Notes under the pieces: generated by a model
The model's database searches: none
What the model saw: the letters and a program-made list of their open reading frames with translations, nothing else
Told to the model about the DNA's origin: nothing
Part shown: piece after piece, positions 3,992-51,862 of the stretch
Layout: each line of letters begins with the position of its first letter
How positions within the stretch are numbered: position 1 is the stretch's first letter
Program-made: the position numbers and the translations under genes
Source: a virus
Lineage: Duplodnaviria; Heunggongvirae; Uroviricota; Caudoviricetes
DNA length: 52,139 nt
Virus record (IMG/VR): IMGVR_UViG_2541047752_000007
Location: 1-52,139 of that record
Reading direction: 5' to 3' (one strand)

Positions 3992-5110
3992 TTACAAAAT
4001 GGAATATTCAGGGTAATAAACAAAGCGCCCAATTTCCCCATGATCCGGGCTGTAAATAATCACCGCTGCCAGACGCCGCGACCGCCAGCCGCCATTAGTT
4101 GAATATGCGTCTTTGCCAGCTAATGTGCCGTGGTGCTCAACTATTCCAAGTGATGTTTCAACAACTGATTGATGGTGCAGATGTCCAGTGTGAGCGTAAA
4201 CAGCCACAGACCTCCCGAAATCCTCCCGCCAGTCAGATACGCAAGCCGACAATAAATTTTCCGGCTTTTTGATAGTGTGCCCGTGGTGGTAAGCAAGGAA
4301 TGTTTTGCCGTACTGTGTGTGGTGGACGATAGCAGGGGACACATCAACAGTTACGCGCGGTTCATCTTCGTAAAAAGCCGCCAGCGCCGCACGTAGCCAA
4401 ATCATGCCAGACTGATCGTGATTGCCTGATAGTACCTGGATTTCAATATCCTTATGATTTAACAACATCTTTCCTACCGCCAGACGTACCGCTCGGATCG
4501 CTACATAGACAAGTTTTGCATAGCGTGAATCGCAATCCAGTACGTGATTGCTTGATGGCGTAACTGGCAACAGCCCGTCAGTGTGAAGAACATCCCCACC
4601 GAGAAGCAAAACAGCTTTTTCAGACATCGGCGCAGCGCCCACCGCGTAGTCAAAGAATTCATTCAACACGCGTTCAGCGATCCCAGTGTCGTAGCTCTCG
4701 CCGCATTCAGCTTTATGAGCAAGCGCCCCGATATGCAGATCAAATACCGGATAAAGGGCCAGGCTTTTTTGAAAATCAATTTCAGGCACTGGCACGGCCT
4801 CCGCGCGTGGTATTTCTTCCGTGAATGCGTCGCGGGCAGCTTCCATTAGCCTTTCCATTTCATCACGGTCACGGGCAGTTTTAATCCAGCGCATGACCGT
4901 ATTACCAGCCTTATCGACAAGAACAGATTCACCAGTAATGCCAAAACCAGGCGCGCGACGCGTTGATATTAAACCGCGTTTCGCCAGTTTTGCGCCTAGC
5001 CGCTCGACGTTGCGTTTTGACATGCCATATTTTTCAGCGATCTGCTTGTACGTTAAACCGTTGTTATATTCAGCGATCAATTGCTCATCGCTGATTTTTC
5101 TTTGCGACAT
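3992..5110 (-). CDS. HTH domain fused to calcineurin-like metallophosphoesterase
   Basis: 372 aa; N-terminal LTYKQIAEKYGMSKRNVERL HTH; phosphoesterase motifs FDLHIG, GGDVLHTDG, SGNHD, YHHGH, HTGHLHH. Confidence 0.6.
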   Translation of the reverse strand: MSQRKISDEQLIAEYNNGLTYKQIAEKYGMSKRNVERLGAKLAKRGLISTRRAPGFGITGESVLVDKAGNTVMRWIKTARDRDEMERLMEAARDAFTEEIPRAEAVPVPEIDFQKSLALYPVFDLHIGALAHKAECGESYDTGIAERVLNEFFDYAVGAAPMSEKAVLLLGGDVLHTDGLLPVTPSSNHVLDCDSRYAKLVYVAIRAVRLAVGKMLLNHKDIEIQVLSGNHDQSGMIWLRAALAAFYEDEPRVTVDVSPAIVHHTQYGKTFLAYHHGHTIKKPENLLSACVSDWREDFGRSVAVYAHTGHLHHQSVVETSLGIVEHHGTLAGKDAYSTNGGWRSRRLAAVIIYSPDHGEIGRFVYYPEYSIL

Positions 5111-5143
5111 AATGTTATTTCCTCATGTTTACATTTTGTATAT

Positions 5144-5866
5144 TTATTGACAACAAACAATCTCTTTATATGTTTCTTCTACCATGTCGAATACTTCCGG
5201 CCTGTAATAAAAAAATTCAGTGCTACCATCAAACTTAACAGGGAAGTTTATTTTATAGTCACTGAAAGCATCGTGCATTTTGCTTTCTATTTCCTGCATA
5301 ATCTCAGTAGGCCCATTCCATGTTTTAACTACCTGTAAATCAGTCAGCCTTACACCTGCCTTACGAGCACTTTTAAATACTCTGTTCCTCCTTTCGTTCT
5401 CTTTTACGCTTACACCAATTTTCATTTGTGTAGGCACTTCAAGATCATCAACCATGATGTAAAGTTTTCCGTTGTAGTGTGATAAAAACCCGTATTTAGC
5501 GCATTTCGGGCAACCGCGCCCGCTCTTAATGTCTCTAGGTTTAGCCGACCACTCATGATCACAAACCTTGCAGCGGCATAATACTTTTGTACTGTTATTA
5601 ACTATTTCAACCAGCACTTCAATATCAGGATTAACCTTAGCAATAGCCGATATTTGTTCTTCATGCGATAACTTCATATTCCCAGCGCATTTCTGGCAAC
5701 CACGTCCATATTTAATATTGCTAGGTGTAGCCGACCATTCATGGTTACAAACTTTGCAGCGACATAATACTTTTGTACTGTTATTAACAATTTCCCCTAA
5801 CACTTCAACATCAGGATTAACTTTCGCGATAGCTGCAACTTGTTCTTCATGTGTTAACTTGCGCAT
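5144..5866 (-). CDS. T5orf172 (GIY-YIG-like) domain protein with duplicated N-terminal zinc ribbon
   Basis: 240 aa; two copies of HEEQxAAIAKVNPDxEVLxEIVNNSTKVLCRCKVCxHEWSA...GRGCxKCA; C-terminal GKLYIMVDD...KIGVS...TEFF matches T5orf172 pattern. Confidence 0.5.
   Translation of the reverse strand: MRKLTHEEQVAAIAKVNPDVEVLGEIVNNSTKVLCRCKVCNHEWSATPSNIKYGRGCQKCAGNMKLSHEEQISAIAKVNPDIEVLVEIVNNSTKVLCRCKVCDHEWSAKPRDIKSGRGCPKCAKYGFLSHYNGKLYIMVDDLEVPTQMKIGVSVKENERRNRVFKSARKAGVRLTDLQVVKTWNGPTEIMQEIESKMHDAFSDYKINFPVKFDGSTEFFYYRPEVFDMVEETYKEIVCCQ
5490..5866. repeat. intragenic tandem duplication, about 180-bp unit x2
   Basis: 5570-5700 and 5750-5870 are near-identical (e.g. gcagcggcataatacttttgtactgttattaac vs gcagcgacataatacttttgtactgttattaac). 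Confidence 0.8.
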
Positions 5867-16262: not shown

Positions 16263-16422
16263 TGTTTACAAAATGGCGTCATTGTGTGATGTGGATCACA
16301 TAATGGCGCTTTATTGTTTGTTCGCATGTATCCGTTTTGTATACTTCAAACAAACAAAATGCTCTTTAAAAATCCGGTAACGCTGAAATGCGTAAAAATC
16401 ACCTGAAAAAGGAGAGAGCATT

Positions 16423-44662: not shown

Positions 44663-47600
44663 ATGAGTAGCGGCGGCGGCAAAGCAAAAACACCGACTTT
44701 GATTAATGATAACCTTTATCACAAACAGTTTTATCGTGTGCTGGATATTATTTCGGAAGGTCCGATTTATGGCCCTGTCAATACCAGTGCGCCATTAAAT
44801 AGCGTAATGCTTAATGACACTCCTGTAACTGACGCGAACGGTAATACCAGTATCCCTGGTGTTAGCGTTGCGTGGCGAAATGGTACTGCCGACCAGTCAC
44901 CAATCAACGGCTTTAATGCCATCGAATCAACGGTAATGGTTAACGCGCAGGTGAAGCACGACACGCCACTTGTAAGGACGGTATCAGATCCGAACGTGAC
45001 GCGAGTCCGGTTAAATATTGGCGTGGATTCACTGGTGGAAAGCGATAGCCAATCAAACCAGAAAGAAACATCTGTCATTATGGCGATCGACGTTAAACCG
45101 TCCTCATCCTCAACATGGTCGTCTATTAAGGCCGTGCAAATAGGTCCAGGTAAAATCAGCGGAGAATACCTTGAAGCGCATATTATTGATGCGCCAGATG
45201 AAAAGCCGTTTGATATTCGCGTTCGCCGCGTAACCGCTGATAACACAAGTGATCTATTGCAGAATGATACGCGGTGGAGTAGCTACAGCGAAATAATCGA
45301 CGATAATTTGTCTTATCCTCACACTGCTGTAGCAGGCGCGGTAATTGATCACGATCAGTATACTGACACACCTACACGCACTTATCACCTGCGTGGGCTT
45401 ATTGTTGACGTGCCTGATAACTACGACCCGGAAACGCGCACTTATTCCGGTTTATGGCTTGGCGGATTTAAACAGGCTTACACTAATAACCCTGCGTGGA
45501 TCTTTCGTTACCTGGTTAAAAACGAGCGTTTCGGCCTTGCCCGCCATGCTGGTTATATCGACGTTGACGACGGCGCATTATACACACTTTCCCAATACTG
45601 CGACCAGTTGGTCGATGATGGTTACGGTGGCCTTGAGCCTCGCGTGACGCTTAATGCGTACATAACAGAGCAAATGAGCGCCCGCGATTTGCTGGACAAT
45701 ATCGCCGGGATGTTCCGTGGCATCGCGTTATGGGACGGGCAACGTCTTACCGTAATGATTGATGCACCGCAAGATCCAATAGCCACCATTACGAATGCAA
45801 ACGTCGTTGATGGCGCGTTCACTCGTTCGAGTATCGCCCGTGCGGAATGCTACAACGCCGTGATCGTATCCTGGACTGACCCGGAAAACGGGTGGGAGCA
45901 GTCAAAAGAGTATGTAGCAGATGATGAGCTAATCGCCCGCGATGGTTACAACGAAACCACGATGGAGGCGTTCGGCTGTACGTCACGCGGGCAAGCGTAC
46001 CGCGCGGGCAAATGGCTGATAGAAACAGCAAAACGCGAGCCGTCAAAATTCACGTTTAAAATGGCACGTGACGCGATTCACTTTACGCCAGGGGATATAG
46101 TCGAAATCCTCGACAATAACCGCGCAGGTGCGCGTTTAGGTGGGCGTATCGTGGCGAACAATGGAAACGTGATAACGGTCGATAAGGTTGACAGCGACTA
46201 TATCACAGCAGGCGACACCATCAGCTTACTCGACAGCGACGGCAAATTTAAAAAACATCAGATTACTGGTGTAAACGGAAACGAAATCACACTAGCGGCG
46301 GCCCCGGCATGGATTCGGAACGGTACTGTATTTGCTGTATCCACCGAAGCGGCAAAACCCGTTTTATGCCGGATCACCAGTGTAGCCGAAACCGAAAATA
46401 ATAGCGTGTATACCATCGAAGCAGCGCAACATGACCCGAACAAACAAGCGGTAGTCGATGAAGGCGCGATATTTGAAATCAACAACGACACGCTTAATCA
46501 CTTCCGTGTCCCGAACATTGAAAACCTGAAAGTGGTAAACATCGGATCTGAAACAGTTCAATGCCGAGCTACATGGGAAACACAGACAACCACGCATCGC
46601 ATGACATTCGAGATCCGCATATACAATACTGATGGTGCGGTGGTTAAAAGCTACGAAACAACGAAATACAGTTATGATTTTTATGGTATTGACGCTGGCG
46701 CGTATTCGTTAGGCGTTCGCGGAAGAAACGATACTGGCATGAAAGGCGCTGAAAGCATTGTTGATCTTGTTATTGGTGCTCCAGCCGCGCCAGTTGGCGT
46801 AAATTGGGTTCCAGGCGTATTTCAGGCGACCGTGTACCCGATAAGCAAAACCACGCTTACTACCGATACGTCATATGAATTCTACTATGCAGGGGAAAAT
46901 CAGATCACAGATCCGGCAAAAATAACCACGTCGGCACAGTTTACCGGGCGCGGGTATCAGTGGACGTTCGGCGGCATGAATACGGGCCATACTTATTACG
47001 TTTATGTGCGCACTCGTAATGCTTTTGGTGTGTCTGATTTCGTCGAGGCATCAGGTAAGCCAACAGAGGATTTTGACGAAATCACTGATTACGTTACAAA
47101 GGATGTAATGGAATCAGAGCAATTCAAGGAGATGATTAGCGACATTAAAGATCTTGGTGATCGCACTGATATTGTAGAAGGAGCTACCGAAGACCTTAAA
47201 ATAGCTACAGAGGATCTTAAAGCTGACACAGATACACTTAAAAAAGACACCGAAGACCTTTATAAAAAAGTCGAAGAAAACGCCGATGAAATAGGCAAAC
47301 ATGAGGTAAGAATAGACTCATTAGAGGTATCAAACGAAAACGTTAACAACGAACTGGCACAGGCAAAAGCAAGTTTACAAAACGCTTCGCTTGCTCTGAT
47401 CAATAACTCGCTTGCTCAAACTAACACGCGGGTTACTCTTACCGCTCAATATAAGAAAGGTCGCAACGAAACAAAGGCACAGATTGACCGCATCGACAAC
47501 GTTATCGCAGAGGAGAAAAAAGCGACAGCGGAATCACTGGAAACCATCACAGCCGAAATAAATACGATAGACTCAAACATCAAAGGAGAAATAGCCCGCG

Positions 47601-48715
47601 TAGACAAAGCAATAGCAACCGAAACGCAGGCGAGAACGGAAGCTATAAGCAACGTTAACGCCAGTATCAGCAGCCTGGAAAACAAAACTGATGCGAGCGT
47701 TTCTCGTCTCGATCAAGCTATCGCTGACGAATCAAGCGCCCGCGCTCAGGCAATATCAGGAATCAGTGCGGAGCTTGGTCTTGTTGAAAATGAGGTTGAT
47801 AAAAACAGCAACGAAATAGATCAGGCGAAAGCAAGTCTGCAAAACGCCTCGATTGCACTTATCAACAACTCAATAGCGCAAAGCAAGATGAGCACCGTTA
47901 TTGAGGCGAAGTACAGGAAAGGCCAGACAAAAACAAAAGCGGAAATAGCAAGGATCGACACAGCAATAGCAGACGAAACCCAGGCCCGCGCGGAGGCTAT
48001 AGCATCACTTGAAGCCAATATTAATGAAAACATTTCAGCAAAAATAACAGATATATCAACGGCGCTCGCAACTCACGAGGCATCAAGTGCTGAAAAATTT
48101 GTCAAAATATCGGCATCTTTCGACGATGTAAATTCAAGTATCACGGAATGGTCACAGGCTATGGCAACGGCAGACGAGGCATTATCAACCAAAATTGATC
48201 AGCTAACAGTTACCGTTAACGGAAACACAACAGCTATCGAGACGACATCGAAAGCATTAACTGATTTCAAAGGTGACGTTAACGCATCATATTCAATCAA
48301 GATTGCCACTGATAACAACGGAATGAAATATGCCACTGGCATGTCGCTTGGCCTGACTGGTAGCGGTACGAACGCTCAATCGCAGTGTATTTTCCTCGTC
48401 GATCGCTTCGTGTTAATGACGGCAGCAAACGGCACATACACAACGCCTTTCTATGTCACTGGCGGAGCAATGTATGTACGTGAAGCGTTTATTAAGGACG
48501 CATCAATCACCAACGCGAAAATAGGTTCTTACATCCAGTCAAATAACTATGTTTCCGGCAGCACAGGCTGGAAACTTGATAAATCAGGTACATTCGAAAA
48601 CTACGGATCAGTAAGCGGTGAAGGAGCAATGAAATGGACGAACACAACTATCTCAGTAAAAGATGGTAATGGCGTGTTACGCGTCCAGGTTGGGCGAATT
48701 ACCGGATCATGGTAG
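44663..48715 (+). CDS. J: tail tip / host-specificity protein J (central tail fiber)
   Basis: 1350 aa; position after I; conserved J-like N-terminal two thirds; coiled-coil repeat region near C-terminus. Confidence 0.85.
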   Translation: MSSGGGKAKTPTLINDNLYHKQFYRVLDIISEGPIYGPVNTSAPLNSVMLNDTPVTDANGNTSIPGVSVAWRNGTADQSPINGFNAIESTVMVNAQVKHDTPLVRTVSDPNVTRVRLNIGVDSLVESDSQSNQKETSVIMAIDVKPSSSSTWSSIKAVQIGPGKISGEYLEAHIIDAPDEKPFDIRVRRVTADNTSDLLQNDTRWSSYSEIIDDNLSYPHTAVAGAVIDHDQYTDTPTRTYHLRGLIVDVPDNYDPETRTYSGLWLGGFKQAYTNNPAWIFRYLVKNERFGLARHAGYIDVDDGALYTLSQYCDQLVDDGYGGLEPRVTLNAYITEQMSARDLLDNIAGMFRGIALWDGQRLTVMIDAPQDPIATITNANVVDGAFTRSSIARAECYNAVIVSWTDPENGWEQSKEYVADDELIARDGYNETTMEAFGCTSRGQAYRAGKWLIETAKREPSKFTFKMARDAIHFTPGDIVEILDNNRAGARLGGRIVANNGNVITVDKVDSDYITAGDTISLLDSDGKFKKHQITGVNGNEITLAAAPAWIRNGTVFAVSTEAAKPVLCRITSVAETENNSVYTIEAAQHDPNKQAVVDEGAIFEINNDTLNHFRVPNIENLKVVNIGSETVQCRATWETQTTTHRMTFEIRIYNTDGAVVKSYETTKYSYDFYGIDAGAYSLGVRGRNDTGMKGAESIVDLVIGAPAAPVGVNWVPGVFQATVYPISKTTLTTDTSYEFYYAGENQITDPAKITTSAQFTGRGYQWTFGGMNTGHTYYVYVRTRNAFGVSDFVEASGKPTEDFDEITDYVTKDVMESEQFKEMISDIKDLGDRTDIVEGATEDLKIATEDLKADTDTLKKDTEDLYKKVEENADEIGKHEVRIDSLEVSNENVNNELAQAKASLQNASLALINNSLAQTNTRVTLTAQYKKGRNETKAQIDRIDNVIAEEKKATAESLETITAEINTIDSNIKGEIARVDKAIATETQARTEAISNVNASISSLENKTDASVSRLDQAIADESSARAQAISGISAELGLVENEVDKNSNEIDQAKASLQNASIALINNSIAQSKMSTVIEAKYRKGQTKTKAEIARIDTAIADETQARAEAIASLEANINENISAKITDISTALATHEASSAEKFVKISASFDDVNSSITEWSQAMATADEALSTKIDQLTVTVNGNTTAIETTSKALTDFKGDVNASYSIKIATDNNGMKYATGMSLGLTGSGTNAQSQCIFLVDRFVLMTAANGTYTTPFYVTGGAMYVREAFIKDASITNAKIGSYIQSNNYVSGSTGWKLDKSGTFENYGSVSGEGAMKWTNTTISVKDGNGVLRVQVGRITGSW
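47360..48010 (+). repeat. intragenic duplication in J C-terminal coiled-coil region
   Basis: QAKASLQNASLALINNSLAQ...YKKGRNETKAQIDRIDN repeated as QAKASLQNASIALINNSIAQ...YRKGQTKTKAEIARIDT about 460 bp later. Confidence 0.7.
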
Positions 48716-48764
48716 AATTAAGGGGCCGACTTGTTCGGCCTCATTTTATTATGGAGGTGTAATA

Positions 48765-49076
48765 ATGGCTACTTTCGGCGTGGCAACATGGGACGCCAAC
48801 GGAAATCCTAATAACTACGGAATTAAACCTTCCGTAGTAGTCGGCTATATTTCCCTATCTTCCGGGCAAGTATCCGGCACATATAATTTTACCGTTCCTA
48901 CAGGATGTAAATTATCATATGCTATGACGCTTGATTATGGCACAACATCATCAACGCGCAGAAAGATCAGTATTTCAGGCGGTACTGTTTCCATTTCCTC
49001 AGCAGGTGATACGGTTGGTGCTAATATATGGCCCGCATCGCAGTGTGAACTGGTTATTTTTACGGAGAGCGCATAA
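48765..49076 (+). CDS. hypothetical tail-associated protein (MATFG paralog 1)
   Basis: 103 aa from MATFGVATW; GGAGGTG RBS. Confidence 0.45.
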   Translation: MATFGVATWDANGNPNNYGIKPSVVVGYISLSSGQVSGTYNFTVPTGCKLSYAMTLDYGTTSSTRRKISISGGTVSISSAGDTVGANIWPASQCELVIFTESA

Positions 49077-49676
49077 ATGGCTACTTTCGGCGCTTATTTA
49101 CGTTTAAGTAATGGCAATATTTTCGTAACTCCAGATTCGACACCTATGTGCCTTTATTCGCGGGTTGCTCTAAATTCAAGCCAACAGCAAACAATAGCCG
49201 TTCCCAATGGTAAGCCTGTAATGGTATTCATAAAAAACACAAACGATACCGCTACTGGTGTAGCCTATCGCAATTCATCGTCTACCATAGTGATCCCACC
49301 TGGGAATGGTTATGCGTATATATTCAGCATCTTCCCACAATCGCGTCCTAAGTGGGGGATGGCTATATGGAACGCTTCAGGGGAACTGGTATTGACAAAC
49401 GAATCAAGAATATTAACAGACATTGTTACGGTAGGCACGGCTGGATCGAGTGGTGGGATTTATATTGATCAGACGTTATCAGGATCTTATGCGGTAGTTC
49501 CTCAGATATTGGGGGCCGCTGTAGGTATGGGTTCCGCAACAATATATACAGAATCATACTACAACGGCAGCAATACACGAATTCGCGGGAAGATGGTTGG
49601 TAGCTTGCAACAGATTTACGGTTACATTAATCACGGGAACGCTATCACCGCCATTAAAACCGACGCCTATGATTAA
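49077..49676 (+). CDS. hypothetical tail-associated protein (MATFG paralog 2)
   Basis: 199 aa starting MATFGAYL; N-terminal similarity to preceding gene. Confidence 0.45.
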   Translation: MATFGAYLRLSNGNIFVTPDSTPMCLYSRVALNSSQQQTIAVPNGKPVMVFIKNTNDTATGVAYRNSSSTIVIPPGNGYAYIFSIFPQSRPKWGMAIWNASGELVLTNESRILTDIVTVGTAGSSGGIYIDQTLSGSYAVVPQILGAAVGMGSATIYTESYYNGSNTRIRGKMVGSLQQIYGYINHGNAITAIKTDAYD

Positions 49677-49912
49677 TTCAGTTCCGGGCAATCCGTTTTC
49701 TTGAAGTGGTCAACGCTTACCCATTGGAAGTTAAACGGATACCCGGCCTTAACCATTTTATGACCGCCAACATCCGCGACACCGAAGACTGCAACCGCAT
49801 ATTCATTACCTCCAGCCTGATAAGTTGCCGTGCATTCACGTTTCGGCATATCAGCGCAACCAACCATACCAGCGACCATTGCAGCTATAGCGATATTTTT
49901 AAAGCCTTTCAT
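49673..49912 (-). CDS. small lipoprotein, Cor/Llp-like superinfection-exclusion candidate
   Basis: 79 aa from MKGFKNIAIAAMVAGMVGC (lipobox MVGC); GGAGGA RBS; reverse strand just downstream of J. Confidence 0.45.
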   Translation of the reverse strand: MKGFKNIAIAAMVAGMVGCADMPKRECTATYQAGGNEYAVAVFGVADVGGHKMVKAGYPFNFQWVSVDHFKKTDCPELN

Positions 49913-50071
49913 TGTCTTATCCTCCATTGTTCCGTCGGTTGTAGTATCCATAAACATCGTTTTCTCAACATTGATATAAATCAATAAATACATTTTGTAT
50001 AAACCAGAAATGTAACGCAGATCACAAAATGGTAAAATTACCAGGTTAATTAACATAATGGAGTCATTGCG

Positions 50072-51862
50072 ATGATTTACACAACAGGCACGATAGCCGT
50101 TAGCGGAAACACAGTTACCGGAAAGGGGACTGAATTCAACGCCGCATTATCTCTGATCAGAGTTGGTTGCACCCTTATTGCCATTAGCAATCCGGTGCAG
50201 ATTTTCTCAATCACAGAGGTAAAAAGCGCAACAAGTTTATCAGTAACACCTGCGGCAAGTCCTGCTATTCCGGCTGGAACTAAATTTAGCATCCTGCTTT
50301 CAGATTCGATCTCTGTGGATGGTCTTGCTCAGGATGTCGCCGAAACACTGCGTTACTATCAGGGCAAAGAATCAGAAATAGCGGACGCAGTTGAATTTTT
50401 TAGCGACAACAAAGATGTGATTTCAGCCTCAAAATTAGCATCACAATCAGCTACCACTGCAACCAACGCTGCAACAACAGCGACAACCGCCGCCGATTCA
50501 GCCAAGACATACAGAGACGAGGCCCACGAATACGCCAATCAGACAGCAGAGCCGTACAGATATGTTTTACAGCCGCTGCCGGATGTGTGGATACCCTTTA
50601 ATGATTCGCTGGATATGATTACGGGCTATTCTCCGGGTTATAAAAAAGTGAAGATTGGTGATAATGTGGTTCAGGTTGCCAGTGATAAACAGGTTAATTT
50701 CAGTCGCGCATCAACGGCAACATATATCAACAAATCTGGCGAACTGAAAACGGCGGAAATTAATGAGCCACGATTTGAAAAAGAAGGTTTATTGATTGAA
50801 GGTCAGCGAACCAACTACATGTTGAATTCAGTAACTCCAGCTTCTTGGGGTAAATCTGCAAATATGAATGTCGCTGAGGTTGGAACTGATAGTTTTGGTT
50901 TTACTTATGGAAAGTTTGTTTGTAATGAATCATTAATTGGGCAAAGTACAACCCTTAATATGGCAGCAGTTTCAACCTCGGGGGGGGTCGATGTATCAGG
51001 CGATAATAAGAGTGTGACGACATCGTGCAGATTTAAAACGGATTTGGAACTCCTGTTAAGGATCAGGTTTGAAGCCTTCGATGGCAGCACTTCATCTAAT
51101 CTTGGATATGCCATTGTTAATACGCGGTCTTTATTGGTTGAAATCACCGGTGTAGCTGCCGACAGGCTCACCGCACGAGTTAACAAAGATGAAGCTACGG
51201 GCTGGATTTTTGTAGAGGCAACGATTCAAGCAAGTAAAGAAACTTACATAACCTCTGCAATACAATACGCACCAAAAAAAGGTGGTGTCGTTGAATCTGG
51301 TGACTATATTTATCTGGCCACCCCTCAGGTTGAGGATGGTTCGTGTGTATCATCTTTTATTATATCAGGAACGACGGCGGCGACGCGCGCAAGCGATATG
51401 GTTACAGTTCCGATTAAGAATAATCTTTATAATCTTCCTTTTACGGTTCTTTGTGAGGTACATAAGAACTGGTATAAAACGCCAAATGCAGCACCGCGTG
51501 TTTTTAATATCAGCGGTCATCAAACCGGAGCGGGGATCGAAATGGGGTTTGGTTCATCAGGTAGGTACGACGGTTTTCCGTATTGCAATATAAGTGGTTC
51601 AGACCGACGAATAAATGAAAATGCCGGGCTGAAAAAAATGCTTATTGGTATGCGGGTAAAGTCCGAACGGTCCACATGTGTAGTCAGTAACGGTAAGTTA
51701 AGCAGCGAAACAAAAACAACCTGGACTTATATTCAAAGCTCCGCAACTATTCGTATCGGTGGTCAGACAACGACAGGACAACGTCATTTATTTGGTCATG
51801 TTAGAAATTTTCGAGTATGGCATAAGGCATTAACTGATGCGCAATTAAGCGAAATTGTTTAA
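50072..51862 (+). CDS. tail fiber protein
   Basis: 596 aa; N-terminal MIYTTGTIAVSGNTVTGKGTEF; Ala/Thr-rich stretch ATTATNAATTATTAADSAKTYRDEA. Confidence 0.6.
   Translation: MIYTTGTIAVSGNTVTGKGTEFNAALSLIRVGCTLIAISNPVQIFSITEVKSATSLSVTPAASPAIPAGTKFSILLSDSISVDGLAQDVAETLRYYQGKESEIADAVEFFSDNKDVISASKLASQSATTATNAATTATTAADSAKTYRDEAHEYANQTAEPYRYVLQPLPDVWIPFNDSLDMITGYSPGYKKVKIGDNVVQVASDKQVNFSRASTATYINKSGELKTAEINEPRFEKEGLLIEGQRTNYMLNSVTPASWGKSANMNVAEVGTDSFGFTYGKFVCNESLIGQSTTLNMAAVSTSGGVDVSGDNKSVTTSCRFKTDLELLLRIRFEAFDGSTSSNLGYAIVNTRSLLVEITGVAADRLTARVNKDEATGWIFVEATIQASKETYITSAIQYAPKKGGVVESGDYIYLATPQVEDGSCVSSFIISGTTAATRASDMVTVPIKNNLYNLPFTVLCEVHKNWYKTPNAAPRVFNISGHQTGAGIEMGFGSSGRYDGFPYCNISGSDRRINENAGLKKMLIGMRVKSERSTCVVSNGKLSSETKTTWTYIQSSATIRIGGQTTTGQRHLFGHVRNFRVWHKALTDAQLSEIV

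Follow-up and report, generated by a model that had tools for sequence, protein, structure and literature searches.

A Cor-family exclusion lipoprotein gene, most likely directed at FhuA, in a putative receptor-specificity cassette of an mEp021-like temperate coliphage

In phages of the mEpimmI group, the space between J and the side tail fibre gene is occupied by lipoprotein genes of four sequence types. Exclusion of phages that depend on the cognate receptor has been shown for type A, from the OmpA user mEp021, and for type C, from the LamB user mEp010 (PMC11893012, where the group is described). Exclusion lipoproteins of the Cor family are associated with FhuA: T1, HK022, N15, ES18, and phi80 are FhuA users, and, among the phages of BASEL, the complete set of three cor cassette genes is confined to FhuA users (PMC13164509 section 2.5). 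For KanT1 Cor, a complex with FhuA lacking residues 1-70 has been predicted (PMC13164509). The terminal receptor of PeterMerian is also FhuA (BASEL S5 table), and JLBYU60 and Teewinot have been found experimentally to be FhuA-dependent (PMC10373560). For small siphoviruses, a mobile receptor-specificity cassette located at J has been proposed (PMC8594841), and the proteins corresponding to the 103-aa and 199-aa proteins described below are regarded either as receptor-binding parts of the virion (PMC8594841) or as membrane partners of Cor (PMC13164509). A mode of action like that of Llp is probable for Cor proteins (PMC9586334), which have the fold and a disulphide in common with Llp (PMC9586334; bioRxiv 10.64898/2026.03.26.714494); how Cor itself works at the molecular level has yet to be solved (bioRxiv 10.64898/2026.03.26.714494).

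In this study, we analysed a window of 52,139 nt, which is the whole of the virus record IMGVR_UViG_2541047752_000007 (Caudoviricetes). The whole window shows 83-92% identity to MagusPhagus, mEp010, mEp044, mEp554, and mEp021, and is, as judged from its sequence, an mEp021-like (mEpimmI) temperate coliphage. Our results make it very probable that the small antisense gene downstream of J encodes a Cor-family exclusion lipoprotein which blocks FhuA and which lies within an exchanged receptor-specificity cassette in an mEpimmI backbone. The features of the locus are collected in Table 1.

Table 1. Features of the cor locus in the window, with the basis of each assignment
Feature	Position	Strand	Basis or remark
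J tail-tip protein, 1350 aa	44663..48715	+	Pfam GpJ domains; Phage_Tail_Tip at residues 1191-1329
Last ~58 codons of J, assigned to the swapped-in cassette and not to the mEpimmI backbone	48543..48715	+	DNA similarity break
103-aa cassette protein, phrog_557 'outer membrane protein', phi80 gp22 / N15 gp22 family	48765..49076	+	PHROG E 3.2e-29
199-aa cassette protein, phrog_425 'membrane associated protein', phi80 gp23 / N15 gp23 family	49077..49676	+	PHROG E 9.4e-50
cor CDS (stop codon included)	49673..49912	-	ORF and translation, family models, dN/dS
Mature Cor, 61 aa, N-terminal Cys predicted to be acylated	49676..49858	-	Invariant columns, AF2 model
Cys19 codon	49856-49858	-	First residue of mature Cor
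Predicted lipoprotein signal peptide, residues 1-18 (MKGFKNIAIAAMVAGMVG), lipobox MVG-C	49859..49912	-	Rule-based match
Shine-Dalgarno GGAGG	49921..49925	-	8 nt 5' of cor ATG; read directly from sequence
Conserved intergenic region, cor to side tail fibre gene	49966..50071		Cross-phage comparison
CRP-like box (candidate)	50011-50026		CRP-like sequence match
Side (lateral) tail fibre gene, flanking the cassette and outside it	50072..51862	+	phrog_1419 E 5.9e-228

Family models identify the product of the small antisense gene as an ordinary member of the Cor family. The protein matched PHROG 1119 'Cor superinfection exclusion protein' over its full length (residues 6-76, E 4.9e-23), and reached 55.8 bits with NF047972, the NCBIfam equivalog 'phage exclusion lipoprotein Cor', for which the curated cutoff is 31 bits; this match extends over positions 8-76 of the 78 in the profile. 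With the same model, phi80 Cor scored 141, PeterMerian Cor 71, and T1 Cor 55.8 bits, the last being equal to the window protein, and control scoring gave no match for T5 Llp, the BtuB-type lipoprotein of FritzSarasin, or the mEpimmI lipoproteins Lpp021 and Lpp010. In an alignment of Cor proteins from 10 phages, which took in phi80, N15, T1, ES18, mEp235, PeterMerian, bob, and Erwinia phage Eho49, the window protein keeps 14 out of 14 invariant positions (M1, G18, C19, C27, G35, V40, A56-G-Y-P-F60, V65, F70, and C75) and nests inside the T1/PeterMerian clade. The set of conserved residues in the mature domain (C27, G35, E37, V40, A56-G-Y-P-F60, V65, F70, and C75) is thus present in full, and C, G, P, F, and C of this set are invariant also across 75 sequences. 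Identity to the Cor proteins of phi80, N15, and T1, for which an exclusion phenotype has been tested, is only 35-48%.

Database searches gave the same picture. With window Cor as the query, tblastn retrieved 204 phage records, many of them labelled Cor or superinfection exclusion protein, the best phage matches showing 60-64% identity. A profile of 10 phage Cors retrieved 383 homologous clusters (90% identity), for many of which the source gives the name 'cor protein' or 'phage exclusion lipoprotein Cor'; the profile was needed for this number, as a single-sequence query gave six near-identical clusters. Among all 1.84 billion representatives at 50% identity, 45 Cor clusters were detected, and the Cor family is therefore small and compact. 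The orthologue in a prophage of E. coli Ecol_244, which is 97% identical and located at equivalent coordinates, bears the PGAP name 'cor'. Pfam contains no family for Cor, the 103-aa protein, or the 199-aa protein, and PADLOC gave no match for any of these three. The window gene is already recognised by public models and given the Cor name by annotation pipelines. The original prediction of a Cor-like superinfection-exclusion lipoprotein is supported by PHROG 1119 and NF047972, as well as by the conserved synteny described below.

The N-terminus of the protein fits the PROSITE-type lipoprotein rule, with K2 and K5 followed by a hydrophobic uncharged stretch (IAAMVAGMVG) and Cys19, which bears out the lipobox MVGC that had been read from the sequence at the outset. 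No Cor in the alignment deviates at G18 or C19, and sister cor alleles encode the canonical L-V-G-C in place of the M-V-G-C found here. Besides C27, GG-E, AGYPF, V65, F70, and C75 as conserved features, the mature protein has Ala as its +2 residue. According to the +2 rule of Lol sorting, Ala at this position predicts sorting to the outer membrane. Lipidation and outer-membrane localisation of window Cor are predicted from the lipobox and this Ala.

The AlphaFold2 model of the 61-aa mature protein, made with a 75-sequence alignment, is all-beta with a mean pLDDT of 83.5. When this model was compared with PDB by Foldseek, the best full-length match was T5 Llp bound to FhuA (8a60_B; TM 0.59/0.58, 59 of 62 columns, 27% identity), although with an E-value of only 0.06; the E-values of this fold search were weak throughout (0.04-0.4), as expected with a 61-residue query. 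The NMR structure of Llp was also among the PDB matches, and the remaining ones were Tudor/SH3-like barrels covering just part of larger proteins. Among the viral models in BFVD, an exclusion protein from a Dhillonvirus ranked first (TM 0.89), and lipoproteins from T5-like phages came next. When the Cor profile was aligned with Llp by hhalign, all three cysteines were in register and the 73 aligned columns had a probability of 85% (E 6.5e-6). A PDB profile search with Cor reached Llp only at E 0.055, mostly via the signal peptide, and BLASTP of window Cor against T5 Llp gave no alignment at E <= 100. Identity as Llp itself was rejected on the BLASTP result, and remote homology was retained on the profile result; on sequence and model together, the window protein is Cor proper, remotely related to Llp. 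Thus, of the earlier designation 'Cor/Llp-like', the Cor part stands with NF047972, whereas the Llp part holds no further than this remote kinship.

Lpp021 and Lpp010 were also considered as identities for window Cor, and both were rejected, since alignment similarity is confined to the signal peptide and neither matches NF047972. E. coli Ecol_244 and UMNK88, which belong to the genome set of PMC11893012, carry the lipoprotein type of the window, and the window gene is therefore one of the two types catalogued there beyond A and C.

In the window, cor is antisense and convergent to J and to the plus-strand genes for the 103-aa and 199-aa proteins. The order J, ~100-aa gene, ~200-aa gene, and cor is also found in phi80 (PHI80_21-24), N15 (gp21-24), T1, ES18, mEp235, PeterMerian, bob, and Eho49. 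As in the window, the antisense orientation of cor is seen in T1, PeterMerian, bob, and ES18, whereas in phages of the lambdoid and N15 types cor runs in the same direction as J. The claim of synteny, with the lipoprotein gene antisense after J, is therefore matched by eight named phages in gene order and by four of them in orientation. The 103-aa gene starts at MATFG, in agreement with PGAP and the homologues, and not at the upstream ATG at 48663. The 199-aa protein, with tblastn matches in 347 phage records and 48-62% identity to the homologues from phi80, N15, T1, and PeterMerian, is probably part of a receptor-recognition module. The two MATFG proteins next to J had been taken as paralogues. 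The pair is indeed present and has the N-terminal pentapeptide and one 13-residue motif in common (BLASTP E 0.034; profile-profile probability of 53% over 13 columns), but this does not bear out paralogy over the whole length.

The boundaries of the exchanged segment can be seen at the DNA level. Backbone similarity to mEp021, mEp010, and MagusPhagus ends at 48507-48542, around codon 1290 of J, and similarity to mEpimmI phages resumes at 49970-49984. Between these breaks lie the last ~58 codons of J, the 103-aa gene, the 199-aa gene, and cor. J is 86% identical to MagusPhagus J up to residue 1312, and its C-terminus aligns to the very end of the J proteins of phi80, N15, and T1 with 40-42% identity; tandem repeats in J amount to one short 21-nt array. 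The neighbouring side tail fibre gene is 96% identical over 1.3 kb to that of PhiR41_1. The C-terminus of J, the 103-aa and 199-aa genes, and cor thus constitute a swapped-in cassette of about 48543-49969. Furthermore, in E. coli MFDS1019527 and UMNK88 a near-identical cor allele follows J proteins whose lengths are quite different. Because the same arrangement recurs in other phages and the cor allele stands behind differing J proteins, this segment behaves as a mobile unit of receptor specificity and exclusion.

The mechanism that we propose is drawn, step by step, from established knowledge and from homologues, whereas family membership is shown by the sequence. The cassette has been inserted just downstream of a likely control region common to all members of the phage group. 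The Cor precursor would be exported, acquire its lipid on Cys19, and be cut by signal peptidase II, leaving a 61-aa beta-rich mature protein. A disulphide between Cys27 and Cys75 is probable, because both residues align with cysteines of Llp. Mature Cor would bind FhuA, a TonB-dependent transporter, on its periplasmic face and lock it in a state unusable by phage receptor-binding proteins, as T5 Llp does in its crystal structure with FhuA. Lysogens and infected cells would thereby be protected from FhuA phages, including their own phage and its progeny, and ferrichrome uptake would probably be blocked as well.

In this mechanism Cor acts without its companions. Alternatively, Cor may need the 103-aa and 199-aa proteins, which would then be membrane components of the exclusion system rather than receptor-binding parts of the virion. 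The MATFG... N-termini of both proteins, however, contain no recognisable signal peptide, and both genes are co-oriented with J and abut it, whereas cor is often on the other strand; what suggests a joint system is that the three genes always travel together. In addition, cloned cor by itself reportedly excludes FhuA-dependent phages, in work by Uc-Mass in 2004 and Arguijo-Hernandez in 2018. The locus has also been treated as a receptor-binding module attached to J (PMC8594841). We therefore consider a joint exclusion system unlikely, and prefer the reading in which Cor excludes by itself.

With regard to the target, we infer that window Cor most likely acts on FhuA and excludes FhuA-dependent phages, because the cassette is linked with FhuA use in the phages tested. 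The cassette carriers phi80, N15, T1, ES18, PeterMerian, and the Dhillonviruses are FhuA users wherever the receptor has been tested, and FhuA use is found on both deep branches of Cor, the T1 clade and the phi80/N15 clade. Among the named virulent phages, the closest Cor is that of PeterMerian (60-61% identity), and the Cor proteins of JLBYU60 and Teewinot are 61% identical to window Cor. These observations bear also on the possibility that the window gene, while encoding a Cor-family lipoprotein, is a divergent allele which blocks another receptor, for example the TonB-dependent transporter BtuB. Such a role might be suggested by the Cor/Llp-like lipoproteins that accompany BtuB-using phages (PMC13164509; FritzSarasin locus), by the identity of only 35-48% to the experimentally tested Cors, and by the use of OmpA or LamB by phages of the same backbone (PMC11893012). 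The BtuB user FritzSarasin has a 204-aa protein with 25% identity to the 199-aa protein of the window. However, the identification of window Cor as a BtuB-type lipoprotein like that of this phage (bas04_25) was rejected: the alignment between them is limited to residues 5-31 (E 2.7e-4), which comprise the signal peptide plus 'CTA', and the FritzSarasin protein lacks AGYPF and does not match NF047972. Moreover, the closest cassettes, at 61% identity, come from phages with experimentally shown FhuA dependence, and window Cor lies inside the T1/PeterMerian clade while FhuA use spans both deep branches. A target other than FhuA is thus quite unlikely.

The sequence at 49966-50085, upstream of cor, is near-invariant among mEpimmI phages that have unrelated lipoprotein genes. 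It contains short palindromes in addition to the candidate CRP-like box, and is likely to be the control region of cor, presumably with the cor promoter; a consensus scan of 49300-50300 found neither a sigma-70 consensus promoter nor an intrinsic terminator. At the other end of the gene, cor and the 199-aa gene share 4 nt at their stops (TTAA, 49673-49676), and cor transcripts would therefore run antisense into the tail genes. Given this 3' overlap, late tail-gene transcription could interfere with cor. We regard it as very unlikely that the CRP-like box makes this ~105-120-nt region a 'socket' which puts exclusion cassettes under catabolite control, or that the divergent Cor allele differs in its target or its need for partners.

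The antisense ORF at 49673-49912 was confirmed as a real gene. On the minus strand it reads from ATG at 49912 to TAA at 49675-49673, and its translated product is a 79-aa precursor, MKGFKNIAIAAMVAGMVGCADMPKRECTATYQAGGNEYAVAVFGVADVGGHKMVKAGYPFNFQWVSVDHFKKTDCPELN. Among four natural alleles, the differences are mostly synonymous, with a dN/dS of 0.07-0.26 in the cor frame, and gene calls for the identical protein exist on 11 NCBI E. coli contigs. The 79-aa antisense ORF of the original prediction is thus borne out by the positions of ATG and TAA, dN/dS, and the family matches, and so is its strong ribosome binding site, with GGAGG at 49925-49921, 8 nt before the ATG. Some gene callers report versions of 106 aa and 127 aa (P0002-P0005), whose starts at 49993 and 50056 are in frame with cor; these were rejected as true starts. 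The 79-aa start is the correct one, because homologues all begin ~18 residues before the lipobox Cys, the ribosome binding site precedes 49912, and the signal peptide must be N-terminal. A chance antisense frame or a decayed, unexpressed remnant, as might be suspected from the negative promoter and terminator scan around cor and from its overlap with the 3' end of the convergent 199-aa gene, can be practically dismissed in view of the dN/dS values, the full-length family match with every invariant residue kept, the strong ribosome binding site, and the conservation of the exact protein on 11 contigs.

If the assignment as Cor is true, this mEp021-like temperate coliphage would use FhuA as its terminal receptor, and its lysogens would resist T1, phi80, and T5-type phages and may show impaired ferrichrome uptake. 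The assignment also places one of the two further lipoprotein types catalogued in PMC11893012 in a named family and proposes for it a target open to testing, and would add one more case of receptor-specificity/exclusion cassettes moving among unrelated siphovirus backbones. Beyond correct annotation, it has little significance.

Among the named systems, the window locus most resembles those of T1, PeterMerian (Bas05), and the Dhillonviruses bob, JLBYU60, and Teewinot. [quoted passage not shown] Their genes likewise follow J and the ~100-aa and ~200-aa genes in antisense, convergent orientation, and T1, PeterMerian, JLBYU60, and Teewinot are FhuA users where the receptor has been tested. Unlike the window phage, which is a temperate mEpimmI-type phage, these carriers are virulent Drexlerviridae and Dhillonvirus phages, and, in place of the 4-nt stop overlap of the window, they have a gap of 17-30 nt between cor and the ~200-aa gene. 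The Cor proteins of phi80, N15, HK022, and mEp235 are also of the same family and encoded in the same four-part cassette, and are prophage-borne FhuA-exclusion lipoproteins (PMC13164509). However, they are about 35% identical to window Cor and have a 3-residue insertion before the second Cys, and their genes are co-directional with J and followed by a terminator, in contrast to the antisense cor of the window.

T5 Llp (PDB 8A60, 7QJF) is more distant. Like window Cor, it is a small outer-membrane lipoprotein of similar size with three aligned cysteines and a fold similar to that predicted here (TM 0.56-0.59); its gene lies beside a receptor-binding gene, and it blocks FhuA from the periplasmic side. 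Unlike Cor, Llp shows no AGYPF, no BLASTP similarity, and no NF047972 match, and its gene is divergent from pb5 with its own mapped promoter. Lpp021 (type A) and Lpp010 (type C), for which exclusion of cognate-receptor phages has been shown experimentally (PMC11893012), come from the same phage group, and their genes sit at the same site, with J on one side and the side tail fibre gene on the other, in the same antisense orientation and with the same conserved upstream region. In contrast to window Cor, they have unrelated mature sequences, are found in OmpA- and LamB-using phages, and lack the 103-aa and 199-aa companions.

DNA similarity to the backbone of the mEpimmI phage group (mEp021, mEp010, and MagusPhagus) breaks at 48507-48542 and again at 49970-49984, and we found that the J C-terminus, the 103-aa gene, the 199-aa gene, and cor, the gene for the 79-aa Cor-family exclusion lipoprotein, constitute one swapped cassette. 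This cassette shows faint similarity (68-75%) to N15 and T1 DNA. A second mosaic joint lies within the side tail fibre gene, the N-terminus of which matches the mEpimmI backbone, whereas its C-terminal two thirds (50528-51843) match the side tail fibres of Escherichia phage PhiR41_1 (96% identity) and the virulent phage VogelGryff (84%).

A cor allele close to that of the window (~94-95% aa identity), accompanied by both companion genes, is present in E. coli MFDS1019527 and UMNK88. The J genes ahead of this allele differ greatly in length (3420 and 5043 nt, respectively), and the side tail fibre genes after it vary as well. Within the phage group, J ranges from 1350 to 1727 aa. Residues ~850-1170 of the J protein in the window (47200-48050) are coiled-coil-like and internally repetitive, and align to several separate regions of the J proteins of mEp021 and mEp010, which are longer.

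A short motif, (F/W)G-x3-W-(D/N)-A-x-G, is common to the 103-aa protein, where it lies at the N-terminus, and the 199-aa protein, where it occupies residues 92-104. Mechanical ORF listing yields a frame of 137 aa (48663-49076) overlapping the end of J; PGAP and all homologues begin with MATFG at 48765, leaving 103 aa. The cassette of FritzSarasin, a BtuB-using phage, encodes a protein distantly related to the 199-aa one (L020, its locus, 4882-5777; 25% identity, E 6e-8). This suggests a common origin for cassettes serving different receptors.

Upstream of cor, a stretch of ~120 nt, which spans intergenic sequence and the initial codons of the side tail fibre gene, is almost unchanged among mEpimmI phages with unrelated lipoprotein genes (Cor, Lpp021, and Lpp010). 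It contains a CRP-like box, a palindrome, and an extended -10-like motif (table below), and no sigma-70 site was called in it by consensus scan. Across the whole window, the CRP core TGTGA-N6-TCACA has six matches at ≤1 mismatch, versus 1.34 expected from shuffles; one of the six is perfect. Public gene calls (P0002-P0005) use two in-frame starts upstream of that of cor; these are probably mis-called and lie within the conserved control region.

Features at and around cor, with the perfect CRP core match
Feature	Position	Strand	Remark
Perfect CRP core match	16285-16300
Stop codon overlap, cor (-)/199-aa gene (+)	49673-49676		palindrome TTAA
Near-invariant stretch	49966-50085
Palindrome ATTGAT-N4-ATCAAT	49970-49985		inside stretch
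Upstream in-frame ATG	49993	-	106-aa ORF version
CRP-like box TGTAACGCAGATCACA	50011-50026		inside stretch
Upstream in-frame ATG	50056	-	127-aa ORF version
Extended -10-like motif TGGTAAAAT		+	inside stretch

At the 3' end of cor, the overlap of its stop codon with that of the 199-aa gene leaves no space for a terminator, and therefore the convergent transcripts must overlap. In contrast, T1, PeterMerian, and bob, phages which also carry an antisense cor, have a gap of 17-30 nt at the equivalent place, and the gap in ES18 is ~180 nt.
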